Assembly (NCBI GenBank): GCA_049290195.1
Contig: JBATNE010000244.1
Location: forward strand, 145-64,144
Direction: 5' to 3'
Origin: Candidatus Zixiibacteriota bacterium
Lineage (GTDB): Bacteria; Zixibacteria; MSB-5A5; GN15; FEB-12
DNA length: 64,000 bases
A program made the position numbers and the translations under genes. Below, piece after piece: positions 44,759 through 61,418 of the stretch. The notes under the pieces were generated by a model. That model had not been told where the DNA came from. It made no database searches and worked only from the letters and a program-made list of their open reading frames with translations. Each line of letters opens with the position of its first letter. The stretch's first letter is position 1.

Positions 44759-44831
44759 CTCCCCCGGCTGGACTCGAACCAGCGACCCGCTGATTAACAG
44801 TCAGCTGCTCTACCAGCTGAGCTACAGGGGA
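44759..44831 (-). tRNA. tRNA-Asn (anticodon GTT)
   Basis: Hand-folded cloverleaf: acceptor UCCCCUG/CGGGGGA, D-arm GCUC-AGCUGGUA-GAGC, anticodon arm GCUGA-CUGUUAA-UCAGC, T-arm GCUGG-UUCGAGU-CCAGC, discriminator G. CCA is not encoded. Confidence 0.92.
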
Positions 44832-52814: not shown

Positions 52815-54290
52815 GTGAAAAAGAACCTTCCCTCTACCCTGGGTGAACTGAAGAAGTCCGGCTGGGAAAGCCGCACAGTCAAAGATGAAATACGCCAGAA
52901 TCTCCTGCAGAAACTCCGGGCGGGGGAAAAGCCGTTTCCGGGGATTGTCGGATATGAGAAGACCGTCGTTCCGCAGCTGCAGAACGCCCTGTTATCTGAA
53001 CATAACTTCATTCTTCTCGGTCTGCGCGGACAGGCGAAGAGCAGAATCATTCGCCAGCTGGCGTCACTTCTCGATGAATGGCAGCCGTATCTGGCCGGCA
53101 CTTATCTCAATGAAGACCCTTACAAGCCGATCTCTCCCAAGGGTCAGGCGATTATCGCCGATCTCGGCGACAAAGCGCCGATCGAATGGAAATCCCGCGA
53201 AGAACGATACCACGAGAAACTCGCCACCCCCGATGTCTCTATCGCCGACCTGATCGGTGATATCGACCCGATCAAAGCCGCCCGTGAGAAACTGGATATC
53301 TCCAACGAGGAAGTCATCCACTGGGGAATCATCCCCAGAACCAACCGAGGTATATTCGCGATCAACGAACTCCCGGACCTTCAGCCGCGCATTCAAGTGG
53401 GTCTGCTGAATATCCTCGAAGAAAACGACATCCAGGTGCGCGGATTTCCGCTCCGGGTGCCGCTGGATATCATGATCGTTTTTTCTGCCAATCCCGAAGA
53501 TTACACCAATCGCGGCAATATTATCACGCCGCTCAAGGATCGTATCGACTCGCAAATTGTAACGCACTACCCGCGTACGCTCGAGGATGCCAAGGCGATC
53601 ACCGCTTCCGAGCATTCCGGCAAGGACAAGAATATCACGATTCCGGAACTGGTACGGGATATTGTCGAAGAGGTCTCCTTCCAGGCGCGCGCCAGTGAAT
53701 TTGTCGACCAGAGTTCCGGTGTATCGGCTCGAGTCTCGATCTCAGCCTTCGAGAACCTGCTTTCGAATATTGAGCGTCGCGCCCTCATGACCAACGACTC
53801 CGATCTTTATCCTCGGCTGACCGATTTGTATGCCATGATTCCATCGGTCACCGGAAAGATTGAACTCGTCTACGAGGGTGAGCAGGAAGGTTCAATTCTC
53901 GTCGCGCACGGTTTGATCGGCAAAGCGATAAACGCCGTCTTTCTTCAGCACTTCCCGGCCCCCACCAAGGAGAAACAGCATCCGGACCGCGCTTCTCACA
54001 ATCCGTATGAAGCGGTCATCGATTATTTCTCGACCGGCCAGAAGGTCGAGTTGGCCGATGATCTCCCGTTTGCCGAGTACAAGAAGCGGCTTGAGTCAGT
54101 CGCCGGTCTTCGCCAGATCGTGAAACAGAATTTCGACACTCCGGACGAACGGGAACTGCTCTTCCGCATGGAACTGGCGCTCGATGGTCTCCATCACAAC
54201 AACATCCTCGCGCGCGAAGAAGTCGATTCGCTGGTTCGGTACGCTGACATTTTCTCTGATATGCTGAAGGGGATGAGAGGAAATCAGTGA
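52815..54290 (+). CDS. AAA+ ATPase, Mg-chelatase subunit I (ChlI/BchI)-like
   Basis: AAGGAG SD and a GTG start. Walker A GLRGQAKS, Walker B-like IFAINELPDL, and sensor/arginine-finger region VFSANPEDYTNRGNIITPLKDR. Paired with a vWA gene by start/stop overlap. Confidence 0.8.
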   Translation: MKKNLPSTLGELKKSGWESRTVKDEIRQNLLQKLRAGEKPFPGIVGYEKTVVPQLQNALLSEHNFILLGLRGQAKSRIIRQLASLLDEWQPYLAGTYLNEDPYKPISPKGQAIIADLGDKAPIEWKSREERYHEKLATPDVSIADLIGDIDPIKAAREKLDISNEEVIHWGIIPRTNRGIFAINELPDLQPRIQVGLLNILEENDIQVRGFPLRVPLDIMIVFSANPEDYTNRGNIITPLKDRIDSQIVTHYPRTLEDAKAITASEHSGKDKNITIPELVRDIVEEVSFQARASEFVDQSSGVSARVSISAFENLLSNIERRALMTNDSDLYPRLTDLYAMIPSVTGKIELVYEGEQEGSILVAHGLIGKAINAVFLQHFPAPTKEKQHPDRASHNPYEAVIDYFSTGQKVELADDLPFAEYKKRLESVAGLRQIVKQNFDTPDERELLFRMELALDGLHHNNILAREEVDSLVRYADIFSDMLKGMRGNQ

Positions 54291-55378
54291 AATTCGTCTA
54301 CTCCAAGTGGGATGATGCCGCCTTTGCCCGCCTGAAGGATATCTCCGACCTGATGGCGATCTATCATTATCTGCTGATGCGCCTGAACGGCAATGTCCAG
54401 GAGACGCTGGATATGATGAAGCGGCTTCAGGAACAGGGAGTGCTCGATGAGAAATACGATCTCGAGGAACTTGAGAAGTTGCTTCAAGACTCAAATCTCG
54501 TCCGCCAGGGTCCCGATGGGCTCCGCCTGAGCCCAAAAGGGGAGCGCGGTTTGCGGCGCGATGCCTTCAACCAGATATTCGAGAAGCTCCGCACATCCGG
54601 TAAGGGAGACCACCGCCTTCCGCACGAAGGAGGGACGTCAGATGAACCTTTGCCCGAACGGCGCAGTTTCAATTTCGGCGACAACCCCGGGAATATCGAT
54701 TTCACCGCATCGCTGTTCAATTCCATCGTCCGGACCGGCGACCTCGGGCTTTCCATGCACGAAGATGATCTCGAAGTGTTCGAGTCTGAAAAGGCCGGCT
54801 CCTGCGCGACCGTTCTGATGATCGATATATCGCACTCGATGGTATTATATGGCGAGGATCGGATCACCCCGGCCAAGCAAGTGGCCATGGCCTTTACTGA
54901 ATTGATCCTCACCAAGTACCCCAAAGATGATCTGTCGATTGTCCTCTTTGGCGATGATGCCTGGGAGGTTTCGATCAAAGAGCTTCCCTATATCGGCGCC
55001 GGACCCTATCACACCAACACGCAGGCGGGATTGCGGGTGGCTCGCCAGATTCTGATGACCAAGAAGCACGCCAACAAGCAGATCTTCATGGTCACCGACG
55101 GTAAGCCCTCTATGATCACCCGCGCCAACGGACAGATCTACAAGAATCCGATGGGGCTGGATCCCCGCATAGTCAATCGCACACTCGATGAGGCGGTAAT
55201 CTGTCGCAAGAAGAAGATACCGATCACGACCTTCATGGTGACCGATGACCCCTATTTGCAGAAATTCGTCGAGCGGCTGACCGAATTGAACCGGGGGAGA
55301 GCCTATTTCGCTTCGGTTGACAACCTCGGCTCCTATGTCTTCTGGGACTTTGTCTCCAATCGCAAGAAGAAGAAATAG
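54287..55378 (+). CDS. von Willebrand factor A (vWA) domain protein
   Basis: MIDAS motif VLMIDISHSM (DxSxS) with later T and D positions (FMVTDGKPS). 363 aa. GTGA overlap with the ATPase stop. Confidence 0.8.
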   Translation: MKFVYSKWDDAAFARLKDISDLMAIYHYLLMRLNGNVQETLDMMKRLQEQGVLDEKYDLEELEKLLQDSNLVRQGPDGLRLSPKGERGLRRDAFNQIFEKLRTSGKGDHRLPHEGGTSDEPLPERRSFNFGDNPGNIDFTASLFNSIVRTGDLGLSMHEDDLEVFESEKAGSCATVLMIDISHSMVLYGEDRITPAKQVAMAFTELILTKYPKDDLSIVLFGDDAWEVSIKELPYIGAGPYHTNTQAGLRVARQILMTKKHANKQIFMVTDGKPSMITRANGQIYKNPMGLDPRIVNRTLDEAVICRKKKIPITTFMVTDDPYLQKFVERLTELNRGRAYFASVDNLGSYVFWDFVSNRKKKK

Positions 55379-55608
55379 GAGATCGTCGACTTGTTATATC
55401 AATCTCTACTTTTCTGATAGCTACAGGCACGCTTCACACGCAAATTCCTGACTCGTCCGGTTCGCACAGAAGGGGAACTTCCTTGACAAGATGGAGTCTT
55501 TCCGCGATGTTAGGTACGTAACCGCCCTGCGGTGAACGGGGCAACTAACCAAAGTGGGCCAATGTCGACGACTGGACGCCCGGTGGTATCGGGCGACTCT
55601 GATCAAGA

Positions 55609-56940
55609 ATGAAAGCGTCCCGATACAACATTACAGTCCCTCTTGTCTCCGGACAGACTCTCCTCTTTAACAGCGCTACCGTAGCCCTTGCGGAGATTGA
55701 CCCGGTCGATCTCTCTGATGTCACATATGTGCTGGCCGAACCGGAATCGGAGCGGTCCTCCCACCAGGAAGAAATCTTTCAGATACTGTGCGACGGCAAA
55801 TTTCTCGTCCCGGCAGAAATCGACGAACTGGCCGCCATGACCACGCGCAATCGGCTGCAACGATTTGGCGGCGATACTCTGTTTCTGACAATCGCGCCCA
55901 CGCTTGGCTGCAATTTCGACTGCCCCTACTGCTTTGAGAGCAGGAATTCCGCCGGCTCAATGGATGCGGAGACGGAACGAGCGCTTCTAGAATTCGCCCG
56001 TTCCCGCGTCCATGGCACAAAACAGATCCTGGTCACCTGGTTTGGCGGGGAACCTACTCTCTGTCTTGACCTGATCGAGCGGGTCCAGACCGCACTGCAG
56101 CGCCTTGCCCATGAGAAGTCCGTCTCGCTCCTGCCGGCATCGATGGTCACCAACGGCTATCTCCTCGATCGGGCCGCCGCCCGCCGCTTAAACGATCTCG
56201 ATATCAAGGATATCCAGATTACGCTCGATGGTCCCCGCGAATCGCATGACAGACGAAGAACACTGGTCGGTGGCGGACCGACTTTCGACCGCATCATCGC
56301 CAATATAGAGAGCGCGCTGGATCTCCTGCAGATCACGATCCGGATGAACATCGATCGCAGCAACTCCGACGCTGCTGTCGCGCTGACGCGCGAACTCAAT
56401 GACCGTGGCATTCTCGGCAAAGCGAATCTCTACTTTGCTCCCATTGCCGATGCCGGCGGCAGCTGTACCGATGTCAAAGGGCTATGTCTCGCTCCGGCGG
56501 CATTTTCCCACCTGCAGGTAGAGTTGTACCGACGTCTGCAACAGGAGGGGATAAATCACATGGAATACCCCATGCTGGCCCCAGGAGGACACTGCGGCGC
56601 CGACAGCGATAACTCATTTGTCATCTCTCCGTCGGGAGATCTATTCAAATGCTGGGAAGAGATTTCACTCGATCGCTCGCACTCTATCGGGTCGATCTTC
56701 TTCGAGGATCGCTCGCCGCGTCAACAAGCCAACAGAGACAAGTATCTGGCCTGGGACCCGCTCTCTCTGCCGACCTGTCAGCGCTGCAACGTGCTTCCAT
56801 TGTGTATGGGAGGATGCCCCCGACAGTCGCTCGATAAGGAGAAAATTCGCCGCGGTGCCTGTTGCTCGTGGAAATACAACCTATCCGATATGCTGGCAAT
56901 TCGCCACCACTCTGAACGCCGAAAGGAGGTGACATCGTGA
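55609..56940 (+). CDS. Radical SAM/SPASM peptide-maturase-like enzyme with ~95-aa N-terminal extension
   Basis: CNFDCPYC (Cx3Cx2C) cluster motif. SPASM auxiliary-cluster cysteines (CGADSDNSFVISPSGDLFKC ... CQRCNVLPLCMGGCP). The N-terminal SRYNITVPLVSGQTLLFNSATVALAEID pattern is typical of AslB-like peptide-modifying rSAMs. Confidence 0.9.
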   Translation: MKASRYNITVPLVSGQTLLFNSATVALAEIDPVDLSDVTYVLAEPESERSSHQEEIFQILCDGKFLVPAEIDELAAMTTRNRLQRFGGDTLFLTIAPTLGCNFDCPYCFESRNSAGSMDAETERALLEFARSRVHGTKQILVTWFGGEPTLCLDLIERVQTALQRLAHEKSVSLLPASMVTNGYLLDRAAARRLNDLDIKDIQITLDGPRESHDRRRTLVGGGPTFDRIIANIESALDLLQITIRMNIDRSNSDAAVALTRELNDRGILGKANLYFAPIADAGGSCTDVKGLCLAPAAFSHLQVELYRRLQQEGINHMEYPMLAPGGHCGADSDNSFVISPSGDLFKCWEEISLDRSHSIGSIFFEDRSPRQQANRDKYLAWDPLSLPTCQRCNVLPLCMGGCPRQSLDKEKIRRGACCSWKYNLSDMLAIRHHSERRKEVTS

Positions 56941-57026
56941 AGTTAGTGCAGAAACCCCAGACGCCGAGCGCCATTCCGTGCCCGTGCTACAAGAAGCTGT
57001 TTCTCATCATTCCGAGAGAAAGCTAA
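56937..57026 (+). CDS. Candidate 29-aa precursor peptide (not in ORF track): MKLVQKPQTPSAIPCPCYKKLFLIIPRES
   Basis: GAAAGGAGGTGA (56921-56932) is a 12-nt complement of the canonical 16S 3' tail. The GGAGG core lies 7 nt before GTG 56937. The GTG overlaps the rSAM stop (GTGA). The peptide has a CPC motif and a Pro-rich centre. The ORF sits between two rSAM/SPASM genes and is followed by a strong hairpin. Confidence 0.55.
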   Translation: MKLVQKPQTPSAIPCPCYKKLFLIIPRES

Positions 57027-57045
57027 GAATAGTTGATTCTGCTCA

Positions 57046-57073
57046 GGGGATGGAGACCTCATGGTCCATCCCC
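57046..57073 (+). promoter_or_regulatory. Strong stem-loop immediately after the small ORF (attenuator/processing-site candidate)
   Basis: GGGGATGG-AG-ACC TCAT GGT CCATCCCC (8+3 bp with a 2-nt bulge), followed by TCTTGAAAT. A second hairpin CGGGCGA-N10-TCGCCCG lies at 57083-57106. Confidence 0.45.
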
Positions 57074-57124
57074 TCTTGAAATGCGGGCGATGACGTTGTG
57101 TCGCCCGAGAACCGAAAGGACTGC

Positions 57125-58132
57125 ATGCGATCCGAACAGCCTGAAATGGTAGGCTGGGAAATAACCCGGCAGTGCAATCTCACCTGTCCGCACTGCTATA
57201 CGGCCGCGACCCGTCGACCTATGCCGGACCTGAGCACCCCTGAGTGCAAGGCCATTATCGACGATCTCGCAACCATGGGGACGCGATCGATCGGCTGGAC
57301 CGGCGGCGAACCGCTTCTGCGGGCTGATCTTGAAGAGATCGTAGCCTATGGAAAGGCAAAGGGGAATTTCCGTCAGGGAGTCACTACCAACGGCGTGCTG
57401 CTCGACGAATCACGCGCTCGCTCGCTCAAAGCGGCCGGCATCACCTACATCCAGATCAGTCTCGATGGTTCCAATCCGGAACAAAACATGATCATGCGGC
57501 GAATGACCGAAGATGAGTTCAACAAGATCATCGAGGCTGTCCGGATCTGCAAGCGGCTGGAGCTTACGCTTGATCTGGCCATGCTTCTGGGGCGCGACAC
57601 GATCGACGACGCCTGGGAGTTCATCAAGCTCGCCCGGCGCGAAGGGGTCAGCCATATTCGGTATTGCGGATTTGTCCCGTGGGGGAGAGGGAAGCAGAAG
57701 GATGTTGTGGAACGGCTTTTGTTCCGAGAGGACCGGGACAAGCTGCGGCAATTCGTGCTTGATGCAGCTGATATTAAGGATCCTATTCAGATGTTCGACC
57801 CTGCGTTCGGCCCGCTGCCTCCCAACTATGAATTCCATGACTGCATCGCAGGCAAGCAGATGCTCTATATCTCTTCCACCGGCGAGGTCTATCCCTGCAC
57901 CTCCCTTTTGGACAAGCAATTCTGTGTTGGGAATCTCCACCATCGGTCCATCCGCGAGCTTTGGAATGATCCCAAAATGACCGAAATGTCCGAATTTCCC
58001 TTTGAGAATATCCACGGCACTTGCCGGTCCTGCGAAACCTTCCCAGTTTGCCACGGTGGTTGCCGGGGAATAACTTACGCCCATACCCGCGATCTATTGG
58101 CCTCATTTCCGATGTGCCTCAAACAGGCCTGA
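57125..58132 (+). CDS. Radical SAM/SPASM enzyme, PqqE/MftC/NirJ-like (no N-terminal extension)
   Basis: CNLTCPHC cluster motif right at the N-terminus, GWTGGEPLL SAM motif, and SPASM cysteines (CIAGKQMLYISSTGEVYPC ... CRSCETFPVCHGGCRG). GAAAGGA SD before ATG 57125; the ORF track starts at GTG 57098. Confidence 0.9.
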   Translation: MRSEQPEMVGWEITRQCNLTCPHCYTAATRRPMPDLSTPECKAIIDDLATMGTRSIGWTGGEPLLRADLEEIVAYGKAKGNFRQGVTTNGVLLDESRARSLKAAGITYIQISLDGSNPEQNMIMRRMTEDEFNKIIEAVRICKRLELTLDLAMLLGRDTIDDAWEFIKLARREGVSHIRYCGFVPWGRGKQKDVVERLLFREDRDKLRQFVLDAADIKDPIQMFDPAFGPLPPNYEFHDCIAGKQMLYISSTGEVYPCTSLLDKQFCVGNLHHRSIRELWNDPKMTEMSEFPFENIHGTCRSCETFPVCHGGCRGITYAHTRDLLASFPMCLKQA

Positions 58133-58223: not shown

Positions 58224-58685
58224 GTGATTTCTACTGGTGACCATCGCGGATTCACGCTGATCGAACTGGTCATTGTGATTGTGGTTTTGGGCATTTTGGC
58301 GAGCGTCGCTGTCCCCAAATACCGGGACGTCACCAACCAGGCCAAAGAAAGCGCCTGCCGATCATCGCTGTCTTCTCTGCGTCAGGGGATCGTCCTCTGG
58401 CAGGCAAATAATATCATTAAGACCGGGGTCAAAACATTTCCGCCAAGAGACAGCCTTGCTACCGTCGGCATCGTCATGTCTCAGACGATTCCGCCCAATC
58501 CCTTTCAAGATGATTCTAAAGCGCCTGATTCAATTGTGACTGGAGTCACCAAGGGTGTGGTAGTCGGGACTCGTGGCGGCTGGGCCTATAAGGCCAGTAC
58601 CGGCCAGATCTGGCCCAATACCAGCACTTCGGTCACCGTAACCGGCTGCGGCAGTCCCGTGTCGGTGGGCGAGAACACCTGGTAA
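58224..58685 (+). CDS. Prepilin-type N-terminal cleavage/methylation domain protein (type IV pilin / pseudopilin-like)
   Basis: Class III signal ...DHRG|FTLIELVIVIVVLGILASVAVPKY with Glu5. 153 aa. AAAGGAG SD 9 nt before the GTG start. Confidence 0.85.
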   Translation: MISTGDHRGFTLIELVIVIVVLGILASVAVPKYRDVTNQAKESACRSSLSSLRQGIVLWQANNIIKTGVKTFPPRDSLATVGIVMSQTIPPNPFQDDSKAPDSIVTGVTKGVVVGTRGGWAYKASTGQIWPNTSTSVTVTGCGSPVSVGENTW

Positions 58686-60764: not shown

Positions 60765-61418
60765 ATGAAAAAGTTTCTACTCATGGGCTTGGCTTGTCTC
60801 GCGCTTTTGGCGCTGGTAGCCGCCCCGACATTCGCCTGCGGCGAAAATGGCAAGTCCGCGTCGACCACCACCACCGATGGTAAGCTGGTCAGTGCCGATG
60901 GCAAAGCTTCGTGCGATGGCGCCAAGGCGACCTCCGCCGATGCCAAAGCTTGTGACGCCGCCAAAGGCGCCAAGATGACCTCCGCCGACGGCAAAGCCAG
61001 TTGCGCCGCTCATGGCTCTATGACCTCGGCCGATGGTGCCAAGTGCACGGCTGCCGATGGCAAGAACTGCGAAATGGTCAATATGTCGGTTTCCGGCATG
61101 ACCTGCGGTGGATGCGAATCTACCGTTCGCGCTTCTCTGGAAAAGATCCCCGGCGTGATCAAGGTCGTCAATGTTTCCTACAAGGACAAAGTCGCCCTCG
61201 TCTGCGTCGACCCGACCAAGTGCAAGAAGGACATGCTCACCACGGCTGTGACCAACAACGGTTACGAAGCCCAGATCATTCCGGCTGTCGCTACCTCCGG
61301 TACCGATGCCAAGGCTGATTGTGCCGCCAAGTGCGCCGGTATGGACAAGGCTGCCTGTGCTGCCAAGTGCGCCGCCGCCAAGGATGCCAAGGCCAAGACT
61401 CCGGAAGATTCCAAGTAA
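60765..61418 (+). CDS. Secreted heavy-metal-associated (HMA) domain protein with Cys-rich low-complexity flanks
   Basis: GGAAGGAG SD and signal peptide MKKFLLMGLACLALLALVAAPTFA. About 5 copies of an (S/T)ADGK..C-like repeat. HMA core VSGMTCGGCESTVRASLEKIPGV (MxCxxC). C-terminal CAAKC.G..K.ACAAKCAAAK. Confidence 0.8.
   Translation: MKKFLLMGLACLALLALVAAPTFACGENGKSASTTTTDGKLVSADGKASCDGAKATSADAKACDAAKGAKMTSADGKASCAAHGSMTSADGAKCTAADGKNCEMVNMSVSGMTCGGCESTVRASLEKIPGVIKVVNVSYKDKVALVCVDPTKCKKDMLTTAVTNNGYEAQIIPAVATSGTDAKADCAAKCAGMDKAACAAKCAAAKDAKAKTPEDSK

Follow-up and report, generated by a model that had tools for sequence, protein, structure and literature searches.

A probable very short RiPP precursor gene between two radical SAM/SPASM enzyme genes in Zixibacteria

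In the CteB/CteA system (thermocellin, SCIFF-type) and in the PapB/PapA system (freyrasin, ranthipeptides), an RRE-bearing SPASM maturase acts together with a short Cys precursor. The mycofactocin (MftA/MftB/MftC) and PQQ (PqqA/PqqD/PqqE) systems combine a Tyr-containing precursor of about 20-30 amino acids with a SPASM enzyme, which is nearest to the clade of the second enzyme described here. Triceptides (three-residue cyclophane RiPPs; YhhB, XyeB, FxsB, AmcB-type maturases) contain an aromatic-X-X motif, and an aromatic-x-Ile unit is nearly invariant in the peptides described below. In the thuricin CD (TrnC/TrnD) and ruminococcin C (RumMC1/MC2) systems, two radical SAM genes are located next to short Cys precursors (PMC12093266, PMC8188230). 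The cassette analysed here resembles these two-enzyme sactipeptide systems in combining two radical SAM enzymes with a short Cys-containing candidate precursor. It is located within a window of 64,000 nucleotides, i.e., the whole stretch of DNA that was analysed, and contains the following features:

55609-56940, + strand: rSAM1, a 443-aa radical SAM/SPASM enzyme with a predicted N-terminal RRE-like domain (Pfam Radical_SAM)
56921-56932, + strand: Shine-Dalgarno sequence GAAAGGAGGTGA for the small ORF, within the rSAM1 codons R-K-E-V
56937-57026, + strand: candidate small precursor gene, 29 codons plus TAA stop, GTG start
56937-56966, + strand: presumed leader, residues 1-10 of the peptide
Residues 11-29 of the peptide, + strand: presumed core
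56979-56981 (Cys15), 56985-56987 (Cys17), 56988-56990 (Tyr18), 57000-57002 (Phe22) and 57006-57008 (Ile24), + strand: key residues
57046-57073, + strand: GC-rich hairpin GGGGATGGAgacctcatgGTCCATCCCC, 20 nt past the peptide stop, followed by the weak T tract TCTT
57125-58132, + strand: rSAM2, a 335-aa radical SAM/SPASM enzyme (Pfam Radical_SAM 21-179, SPASM 249-313)

The stop-to-stop frame of the small ORF opens at 56916 and its first start codon thereafter is GTG at 56937-56939, which overlaps the rSAM1 stop codon TGA at 56938-56940 (GTGA), as an initial annotation of this DNA had stated. The same annotation described a short, basic and Pro-rich product with a CPC-Y motif, and the translation MKLVQKPQTPSAIPCPCYKKLFLIIPRES agrees with this description: it contains five Pro, C15, C17 and Y18, and has a net charge of about +4. 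The peptide ends with ...IIPRES and its sole Glu is residue 28, C-terminal to Tyr18. The prediction that gene callers would overlook the ORF holds true at this locus, because its product is absent from about 15 billion predicted proteins (exact look-up), and the gene table of a 95%-identical relative's contig lists no gene at this position. Orthologues of 30-31 amino acids are present without names in the same protein collection, and in a 56% relative an independent gene caller did annotate a gene of 30 aa that overlaps by 4 nt. In a representative protein library, just 15 clusters match the peptide family at E <= 1e-3, which is consistent with the family's ORFs rarely being called. Within 10 kb, 145 ORFs reach 25 aa or more, and the small ORF is one of them. 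A search of the window with the peptide family HMM retrieved no other member, the only further match having E = 0.95. The 230 nt upstream of rSAM1 (55379-55608) were inspected for an alternative precursor and contain no family member.

An iterated peptide HMM detected 53 distinct homologous ORFs at 46 loci, adjoining the same pair of radical SAM genes; most of them are from Zixibacteria and some from Acidobacteria. A further 11 divergent peptides with the same leader type were found at cassette loci without an HMM match. Metagenome-assembled genomes are the source of all comparators; at the DNA level, the closest is locus L001 (rSAM1 53% identity), while relatives at 95%, 74% and 56% were compared by gene tables. 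The peptide is 83% identical to its L001 orthologue, although rSAM1 is only 53% identical. The 53 homologues are free of stops and frameshifts in the orthologous frame and use ATG (39), GTG (11) or TTG (3) as start codon; those immediately 3' of rSAM1 mostly start with an ATGA overlap. The Cys and Tyr residues that the initial annotation had singled out are conserved to different degrees: the first Cys is present in 52 of 52 aligned peptides, the second occupies the same column in 36 and is shifted in 10 more, and the Tyr is found in 40 of 52. An aromatic column (F/Y/W in 51 of 52) and an Ile or Val column (52 of 52) complete the C-terminal pattern, and the motif aromatic-x-Ile-(Ile/Leu)-(Pro/Cys) recurs. 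In its general form, [FYW]-x-[IV]-[ILV]-[PCSY], it is found in 47 of 59 peptides, whereas control ORFs contain it in 1.4% and shuffled cores in 2.6% of cases. Exactly two Cys are present in 50 of 59 peptides, and most are 27-31 aa long.

In the overall layout, the N-terminus is conserved (M-K/R-F-I-E/Q-x-P), a variable linker follows, and the C-terminus with its Cys, aromatic and Ile residues is again conserved. One and the same leader type is found ahead of differing cores, and homologous leaders with quite different cores also adjoin rSAM1 homologues that lack rSAM2. With a presumed leader of only about 10 aa, the peptide is unusually small for one that combines leader and core, which counts against reading it as a precursor. 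When 30 family members were scanned against Pfam and NCBIfam with E <= 10, none of them had a match. As judged by these comparisons, the peptide belongs to an uncatalogued family in Zixibacteria and Acidobacteria.

The substitution pattern points to purifying selection on the peptide in the small-ORF frame only. Comparison of the window with L001 gave 11.25 synonymous differences per 19.3 sites and 11.75 non-synonymous differences per 64.7 sites, corresponding to pS 0.58, pN 0.18 and pN/pS 0.31. The pooled pN/pS is 0.66 in frame, and shifting the frame raises it to 1.03 and 1.29; the pooled ratio is only moderately below 1 because dS is near saturation for most pairs. Entropy is highest at the third codon position (1.45 versus 1.12 and 0.97). 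That the conserved block is an RNA element only was considered and rejected on the basis of this frame-specific pattern.

The small ORF is preceded by a 12-nt Shine-Dalgarno-like sequence with the GGAGG core at 56925-56929, the 7-nt spacer TGACATC at 56930-56936 and GTG at 56937; the initial annotation had reported this match and its spacing, and both were confirmed by reading the coordinates. It had placed the sequence in the last codons of rSAM1. The sequence is indeed located within the rSAM1 tail, but it covers codons -6 to -3 (R-K-E-V) rather than the last ones, and the TGA within the 12-mer is out of the rSAM1 frame. That such a match is unlikely by chance is true for the exact 12-mer, with a calculated expectation of about 0.008 in 128 kb (both strands), but the argument weakens if one mismatch is allowed: the window then contains one match versus an expectation of 0.31, and such matches turn up in 26 of 100 shuffles. 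Complementarity to the anti-Shine-Dalgarno sequence was assumed from the generally conserved 16S tail (...UCACCUCCUUUC), because the organism's own 16S 3' tail is not in the window, where Rfam finds only a tRNA.

The real support for the Shine-Dalgarno sequence comes from comparative data and not from the chance argument. GGAGG occurs at 7-nt spacing before about 40 of the 53 homologous ORFs, and a AAAGGAGGTGA-type sequence at 7 nt precedes homologous ORFs both inside rSAM1 and in intergenic DNA. Within the rSAM1 tail, GGAGG is present at 34 of 67 cassette loci versus 0 of 33 loci without a peptide at the stop (Fisher p = 1.6e-12); counted where a peptide gene starts at the rSAM1 stop, it is 27 of 34. 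The R-K-E-V tail of rSAM1 is present only where the peptide gene follows, which makes this locus a clean natural case of a ribosome-binding site that constrains the C-terminal codons of the gene preceding it.

The spacer between the small ORF and rSAM2 (57024-57100, 77 nt) folds with an MFE of -24.8 kcal/mol, and its z-score of only -1.62 is marginal in comparison to shuffles. Of 51 homologous ORFs, 82% have a strong local hairpin (z < -2) within 90 nt past the stop; the post-stop hairpins of the homologous loci have a median of -24.8 kcal/mol, and their stem sequences vary by locus. A terminator scan does not call the hairpin at 57046-57073, which lacks a proper T tract, and Rfam detects no RNA family in the cassette region. 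Presumably, the hairpin, placed between the small ORF and rSAM2, acts as an attenuator or as a stem that stabilises the mRNA.

rSAM1 matches the NCBIfam SPASM model TIGR04085 with 55.3 bits (cut-off 27). Its CxxxCxxC motif (C101/C105/C108) and nine further Cys are invariant in 31 homologues, and those in the SPASM region include C329, C348, C390, C393, C399, C403 and C418. The AF2 model of rSAM1 has an overall pLDDT of 86.7 and contains at the N-terminus (pLDDT >90) strands at 7-11, 17-21 and 26-30 and helices at 32-43, 51-62 and 73-86. In this model, residues ~7-86 are predicted to form an RRE-like (PqqD-like) beta3-alpha3 domain, and rSAM1 is presumed to be the leader-binding maturase. The best PDB folds are CteB (5wgg) and TigE (8vpo), with a full-length TM of 0.67 to the RRE-bearing CteB. 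The ATG of rSAM2 at 57125 has AAAGGA upstream, an alternative GTG start is located at 57098, and the orthologue in the 95% relative is called at 335 aa. rSAM2 matches Pfam SPASM with 49 bits and has no room for an RRE. Its nearest NCBIfam models are AhbD, MftC and NirJ2, all under cut-off, and its nearest PDB sequences are anSME and PqqE. Both enzymes are under the cut-off of every named family in NCBIfam, and because the scores are far below these cut-offs, the enzyme chemistry is not transferable by homology.

The adjacency of rSAM1 and rSAM2 is found at 67 loci. In the 46 loci with a peptide gene, short ORFs (53 coding sequences) are co-oriented, adjacent and co-conserved with the radical SAM/SPASM enzymes, no other neighbour is common to more than 9 loci, and no protease, exporter or immunity gene is conserved around the cassette. 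Membership in the cassette was also considered for the MoxR-like AAA and VWA genes upstream and for the prepilin-like gene downstream, but was rejected, as they are syntenic only in the nearest relatives. The peptide gene varies in position, being found upstream of rSAM1, between the enzymes or downstream of rSAM2; several loci carry two to three different copies, and several genomes have two cassettes. Mobile position and multiple copies are typical of RiPP precursors. A literature search retrieved nothing specific on Zixibacteria in combination with SPASM or RiPP and nothing specific on TIGR04463, while matches for Clo7bot, CefB and geopeptide were only irrelevant acronyms.

Sequence comparison shows that the peptide, its start codon, the unusually long Shine-Dalgarno sequence and the post-stop hairpin are conserved beside the same enzyme pair in dozens of genomes of Zixibacteria and Acidobacteria. 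Very probably, 56937-57026 is a real gene for a very short RiPP precursor and, together with the radical SAM/SPASM genes on either side, makes up a cassette of three genes. The initial annotation had proposed a real small gene with an embedded Shine-Dalgarno sequence and hinted at a substrate for radical chemistry, and the comparative data support this interpretation. Most likely, the peptide is the substrate of the two neighbouring enzymes, and the cassette would represent an uncharacterised radical SAM-modified RiPP system, whose chemistry we infer.

The long Shine-Dalgarno sequence would allow de novo initiation, while the GTGA overlap would permit re-initiation by ribosomes that finish rSAM1. 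The hairpin may attenuate read-through or stabilise the transcript, and together these three elements could ensure high translation and an excess of substrate over enzyme. The conserved N-terminus M-K-[FL]-[IV]-[EQ]-x-P would form the short leader by which the peptide binds the RRE-like domain of rSAM1. rSAM1, whose closest resemblance is to the Cys-peptide maturases CteB, PapB, CefB and TIGR04463, may then use the two conserved Cys for thioether cross-links within the C-terminal core. rSAM2, which lacks an RRE and is MftC/PqqE/AhbD-like, would add a second radical modification. Its target is plausibly the aromatic-x-Ile-(Ile/Leu)-(Pro/Cys) motif, where it could form, e.g., an aromatic-to-C-beta cyclophane or another C-C link.

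The ORF could also have arisen by chance, with the Shine-Dalgarno-like 12-mer as a by-product of the rSAM1 R-K-E-V coding and with nothing being translated. Such a 12-mer with one mismatch is not very improbable in 64 kb and ORFs of at least 25 aa are frequent (145 in 10 kb), but the conservation, Shine-Dalgarno and substitution data already contradict this explanation: the ORF is conserved in 46 loci with coding-type substitutions in its own frame only, GGAGG accompanies the peptide gene at the rSAM1 stop (27 of 34 versus 0 of 33), and the same sequence precedes the intergenic copies. We therefore regard a chance ORF as extremely improbable. It is also very unlikely, if somewhat less so, that the peptide is translated without being a substrate, acting instead as an accessory subunit (a metal- or Fe-S-binding CPC peptide or an rSAM assembly factor) or as an ORF for coupling to rSAM2. 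The rSAM1 stop overlap and the hairpin just before rSAM2 could serve regulation, and CxC motifs can bind metals. Yet it is the amino-acid sequence that is conserved, not merely the act of translation, and homologous leaders with quite different cores beside rSAM1 homologues without rSAM2 also count against this explanation. A coupling device is furthermore at odds with genes upstream of rSAM1 or downstream of rSAM2 and with tandem copies that have different cores.

More weight has to be given to a role in cofactor synthesis, in which the peptide would give rise not to a secreted natural product but to a peptide-derived cofactor that stays inside the cell, as with PQQ or mycofactocin. Here, cross-linking and trimming of the Cys/Tyr core would fall to the radical SAM enzymes, with a small redox-active or metal-binding molecule being set free by housekeeping proteases. 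Among the models nearest to rSAM2 are MftC (full length, 152 bits) and PqqE, the latter also being one of its best PDB sequence matches; the Tyr is conserved in 40 of 52 peptides, and the minimal cassette, conserved without exporter, protease or immunity gene, is widespread over the whole phylum. Nevertheless, rSAM2 scores below the MftC (265) and PqqE (381) cut-offs, the peptide has neither the C-terminal Val-Tyr of MftA nor the Glu-x3-Tyr of PqqA, and MftB/D/E/F-like or PqqB/C/D-like neighbours are absent. The diverse cores, the two to three copies per locus and the two-cassette genomes fit diversifying natural products better, and we consider a cofactor precursor unlikely.

If the small ORF is read as a RiPP precursor, two orphan radical SAM genes become parts of a defined system of three components, in which the substrate needed for in vitro tests can be identified. 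Neither Pfam nor NCBIfam contains the peptide family, which is partly invisible to gene callers (29 aa, GTG start, overlap), but is nevertheless conserved over dozens of species of Zixibacteria and Acidobacteria, phyla for which we know of no cultured producers of known peptide natural products. If the enzymes perform different reactions on the ~19-residue core, this could provide new radical SAM chemistry and a compact engineering scaffold. It is possible, though in our view doubtful, that the product represents a new structural class of doubly modified mini-RiPP, or a peptide-derived cofactor, with two different cross-links and shared by Zixibacteria and Acidobacteria. In such a system, the RRE-bearing enzyme would dock a ~10-residue leader and serve two different SPASM enzymes, and, for example, Cys thioether(s) would be combined with a C-C or cyclophane link on the aromatic-x-Ile-Ile/Leu-Pro/Cys motif. 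If true, much of Zixibacteria, an uncultured phylum, would have this product in common, and Acidobacteria would share it. M-K-F-[IV]-x-x-[PS]-Q would then be the hallmark leader of a wider RiPP superfamily whose cores are interchangeable; the ...CALCSEDPRFC peptides of Acidobacteria, which have an ATP-grasp enzyme as partner, would belong to it.

In comparison with the described systems, the cassette differs from mycofactocin and PQQ by the absence of a separate PqqD/MftB protein, of the C-terminal motifs and of other pathway genes. rSAM2 scores 152.1 bits for the mycofactocin model TIGR03962 (cut-off 265) and the peptide ends with ...IIPRES instead of Gly-Val-Tyr, with no MftB/D/E/F neighbours conserved at the cassette loci; for the PQQ model TIGR02109, rSAM2 scores 123.5 (cut-off 381), Glu-x3-Tyr is lacking, and PqqB/C/D neighbours are absent. 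The link to triceptides is a motif resemblance (aromatic motif in 47 of 59 peptides) and not evidence for homology: the YhhB, AmcB and FxsB models match rSAM1 weakly (8e-17 to 1.6e-11) and in the rSAM core only, with 61.2 bits for YhhB (cut-off 445) and 43.8 for FxsB (cut-off 370). TrnC/TrnD and RumMC1/MC2 are paralogous maturases of the same type, in clusters with transport and immunity genes. In contrast, rSAM1 and rSAM2 belong to different SPASM clades, the RRE is found on one of them, and the cassette has no further conserved component.

Among curated families, rSAM1 scores best against TIGR04463, Clo7bot and CefB, which by NCBIfam name are maturases of small Cys-rich peptides and, to our knowledge, have not been experimentally characterised. 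rSAM1 matches all three over its full length and under their cut-offs: TIGR04463 with 294.7 bits (cut-off 525, 1e-87), Clo7bot (TIGR04334) with 272.7 bits (cut-off 600, 4.7e-81) and CefB (NF038107) with 205.5 bits (cut-off 600, 1.3e-60); the peptide has no match at E = 10. CteB is the best match of rSAM1 in sequence and fold, and the PapB model matches with 2.5e-33. Still, rSAM1 is far below the cut-offs of the SCIFF maturase TIGR03974 (66.7 versus 425) and of PapB (115.7 versus 340), and the peptides, mostly 27-31 aa long with two Cys (50 of 59), fall outside the SCIFF and ranthipeptide classes: SCIFF precursors carry six Cys in ~45 aa, and PapA-type precursors repeated CxxxD units. Unlike the CteB and PapB systems, the cassette includes a second radical SAM enzyme without an RRE, and its precursor gene usually follows the maturase gene and overlaps its stop codon.

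The small open reading frame (ORF), presumed to encode a RiPP precursor, lies between two radical SAM/SPASM genes, rSAM1 and rSAM2:

55609-56940, forward strand: rSAM1, 443 aa, radical SAM/SPASM
56921-56932, forward strand: Shine-Dalgarno (SD) 12-mer GAAAGGAGGTGA, by sequence reading
56925-56929, forward strand: GGAGG core of the SD, 7 nt upstream of GTG 56937
56937-57026, forward strand: small ORF, translation MKLVQKPQTPSAIPCPCYKKLFLIIPRES
56938-56940, forward strand: rSAM1 stop TGA, overlapped by GTG 56937
57046-57073, forward strand: hairpin, by RNA folding
57125-58132, forward strand: rSAM2, 335 aa, best-supported start as in the gene call of the relative with 95% rSAM1 identity

The sequence bears out the initial annotation on the 12-mer, its GGAGG spacing and the overlap with the rSAM1 stop. 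The 12-mer does not, as had been stated, supply the last codons of rSAM1; it encodes R-K-E-V and is followed by T-S-stop. GTG 56937 is the earliest possible start, because its stop-to-stop frame opens at 56916. The improbability of a chance match, also invoked at that stage, is a modest argument alone: when one mismatch is allowed, the window should contain 0.31 matches by chance, and at least one turns up in 26 of 100 shuffles. The window does not include the 16S tail of the organism. The 29-aa product itself is absent from a collection of 15 billion proteins; that collection holds unnamed orthologues of 30-31 aa, and in the relative with 56% rSAM1 identity a 30-aa gene with a 4-nt overlap had been annotated independently by a gene caller.

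Conservation was assessed in 159 loci with rSAM1 relatives, taken from species-representative genomes and metagenomes. In many of them, a similar ORF with an ATGA-overlap start directly follows the rSAM1 stop, encoding for example MKLVQKPQTPKAIPCPCYRKLFEILPRGSN (L001), MKLIQKPQEQAQIPCPCYKKLFLILPPW (L007) and MKFIESPSTAIQKPCPCYKKLFLILPPLQD (L014). An HMM built from 13 such ORFs and iterated over all six-frame ORFs of the fetched loci retrieved 53 distinct coding sequences in 46 loci, in every case on the enzyme strand; a pattern search (SD plus a M-[KR]-[FIL]-[IV] start) found divergent extra members in cassette loci which the HMM had missed. Among the 53, starts are ATG (39), GTG (11) or TTG (3), and about 40 carry GGAGG exactly 7 nt before the start, usually inside AAAGGAGGTGA and both for SD sites inside rSAM1 and for those in intergenic DNA. 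The window and L001 peptides are 83% identical, and their rSAM1 proteins 53%; the two peptide genes differ with pS 0.58 and pN 0.18. Over the whole alignment, pooled pN/pS is 0.66 and median dN/dS 0.46 in the proper frame, as opposed to pN/pS of 1.03 and 1.29 in the two shifted frames, and the third codon position is the most variable. The substitution pattern proposed as a check is thus of the coding type, and peptide, SD and start recur in orthologous loci.

Of 51 cases, 82% have a GC-rich hairpin downstream of the peptide stop (z < -2, median -24.8 kcal/mol), with stem sequences unrelated from locus to locus. The window hairpin alone is marginal (z = -1.62 with the whole spacer folded), and a terminator scan did not class it as a canonical terminator. 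These comparisons establish, at the sequence level, a conserved coding gene in tight linkage with both enzymes, and conservation extends to its SD, to its start position and to the hairpin behind it.

The embedded SD has a natural control in 67 loci where rSAM1 adjoins rSAM2. In 34 of these, the final 22 nt of rSAM1 contain GGAGG; for 27 of the 34 the HMM detects a peptide that begins no more than 12 nt from the rSAM1 stop, and the other seven comprise duplicates, divergent peptides or one rSAM2 start at the stop. Where no gene lies at the stop (33 loci), GGAGG is never present there (Fisher p = 1.6e-12). R-K-E-V (window 56920-56931), the C-terminal consensus of rSAM1 homologues, is likewise gone in these 33, which indicates that this tail is imposed by the ribosome-binding site of the downstream gene and not by the enzyme.

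The peptides share an N-terminus, M-[KR]-[FLI]-[IV]-[EQV]-x-[PS], a variable linker of about eight residues and a core with the consensus K-P-C-P-C-Y-[KR]-x-L-F-L-I-L-P-P-(W). The expected conservation of two Cys held strictly for the first (52/52); the second occupies the same column in 36/52 and is moved by a few residues in 10 more (CPWYC type). Exactly two Cys occur in 50 of 59 peptides. An aromatic residue (51/52) stands two positions before an invariant Ile/Val (52/52), and [FYW]-x-[IV]-[ILV]-[PCSY] is found in 47 of 59 peptides; its frequency is 1.4% among control ORFs and 2.6% among shuffled cores.

The peptide gene lies between rSAM1 and rSAM2 in most loci, upstream of rSAM1 in L015, L017, L026 and L092, and after rSAM2 in L005, L021 and L025. 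It is duplicated with differing cores in L004, L005, L006, L011, L015, L020 and L124. Two or three paralogous cassettes with different cores occur in single genomes (L010 and L030 in CAZPEV01; L024 and L049 in CP070796; L023, L029 and L042 in JBGQAU01; L037 and L045 in CAVVHE01), consistent with diversification of a natural-product family. No other gene is common to more than nine of the 46 loci. The MoxR-like AAA/VWA pair and the prepilin-like gene were rejected as cassette parts, being syntenic in the nearest relatives only; they are listed with two further features of the window:

52815-55378, forward strand: MoxR-like AAA+ ATPase (491 aa) and VWA-domain protein (363 aa), 4-nt mutual overlap, just upstream of the cassette; 84-85% identity in L001, also in the closest relatives
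58224-58685, forward strand: protein with prepilin-type N-terminal methylation motif, 153 aa, GspG/PilA-like N-terminus, directly downstream of rSAM2; also on the contig of the 95% relative, absent from other loci
60765-61418, forward strand: predicted lipoprotein, 217 aa, long Ala/Lys/Cys/Asp-rich low-complexity repeats (…SADGKASC…) flanking a heavy-metal-associated-like GMTCGGC motif
44759-44831, reverse strand: tRNA gene, sole Rfam match in the window

Zixibacteria metagenome bins supply the overwhelming majority of rSAM1 homologues, for which the annotation goes no further than 'SPASM domain-containing protein' or 'radical SAM protein'. The curated families nearest to rSAM1 are maturases that act on small Cys-rich peptides, namely TIGR04463 (1e-87), Clo7bot, CefB, geopeptide maturase and PapB, and rSAM1 scores well below the cut-off of each. 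In an AlphaFold2 model (pLDDT 86.7), residues 7-86 form three strands and then three helices, the predicted architecture of a PqqD-like peptide-recognition domain (RRE); the radical SAM barrel and the SPASM region come after it. In structure the protein is closest to CteB (5wgg, full length, TM 0.67), TigE, anSME and SuiB; CteB is also the top PDB sequence match. rSAM2 belongs to the AhbD/MftC/NirJ/PqqE clade, below all cut-offs. With about 17 residues ahead of its cluster motif and a SPASM domain that reaches almost to the C-terminus, it has no room for a peptide-recognition domain.

Leaders of the same type precede wholly different cores beside rSAM1 homologues without rSAM2, and other Zixibacteria cassettes have precursors upstream of rSAM1:

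L039:5393-7424, L041:6377-7689, L037:7599-7951 and L040:7609-7725, reverse strand: tandem small ORFs, Acidobacteriota/Terriglobia, with an rSAM1 homologue (38-40% identity) and no rSAM2; form MKFVVRSQ...C.L..T.CALCSEDPRFC, each with its own SD
L039:4388-5314: RimK-like ATP-grasp gene, overlapping the rSAM stop, PF08443 at 6e-7
L027:3133-3896, L030:3793-3894, L031:2286-2384, L033:3790-3891 and L024:3788-3895: precursors upstream of rSAM1 in rSAM1-rSAM2 cassettes; leader M-[KR]-L-I-x-L-P-G and two repeats G-P-[HLY]-Y-I-I-C; three precursor copies in L027

The acidobacterial peptides (MKFVVRSQ...CALCSEDPRFC) occur in up to eight tandem copies paired with the ATP-grasp gene. This sharing of leaders fits a model in which an rSAM1-type RRE would recognize the N-terminal leader, while rSAM2 would go with aromatic-x-Ile cores. 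The upstream precursors suggest aromatic-Ile-Ile-Cys as the repeating modification unit.

We propose that the long SD and the GTGA overlap would cause high, partly coupled translation of the small gene, and that the hairpin may attenuate or stabilize the transcript, leaving substrate in excess of enzyme. The 10-residue N-terminus of the peptide would dock on the rSAM1 RRE; the analogy with CteB, PapB and other Cys-peptide maturases suggests that rSAM1 might then form thioether links from Cys, and a further modification might come from rSAM2, with the aromatic-x-Ile unit as a possible target. Both chemical assignments are of low confidence, because neither enzyme reaches any curated family threshold.

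A chance ORF is excluded. Conservation at the amino acid level and a gene position that is mobile between loci make it unlikely that the ORF serves as an accessory or coupling element and not as a substrate. It is possible that the peptide is a PQQ- or mycofactocin-like cofactor precursor, as the minimal cassette, the MftC/PqqE-like rSAM2 and the conserved Tyr would allow; however, the peptide lacks the motifs that define such systems, their partner genes are absent and rSAM2 stays below their score cut-offs, and the diversity of cores and the loci with several copies point to natural products under diversification.

No description of the cassette was found in the searchable literature, the coverage of which is incomplete, and large rSAM-RiPP surveys may include its enzymes unnamed. 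As a lead for genome mining in uncultured phyla the cassette is solid and testable; conceptually it is no surprise. Judged by its sequence-level features, it works like a radical-SAM-modified RiPP cassette. It stands outside TIGR04463, Clo7bot, CefB, SCIFF/ranthipeptide, mycofactocin and PQQ, because, when compared with each, it fell short of the threshold or lacked the motif. It is set apart by ultra-short precursors of a family not catalogued so far, by two unlike SPASM enzymes in a fixed pairing, with a predicted RRE in only one, and by the usual overlap of the precursor gene with the maturase stop, its SD lying inside the maturase gene.
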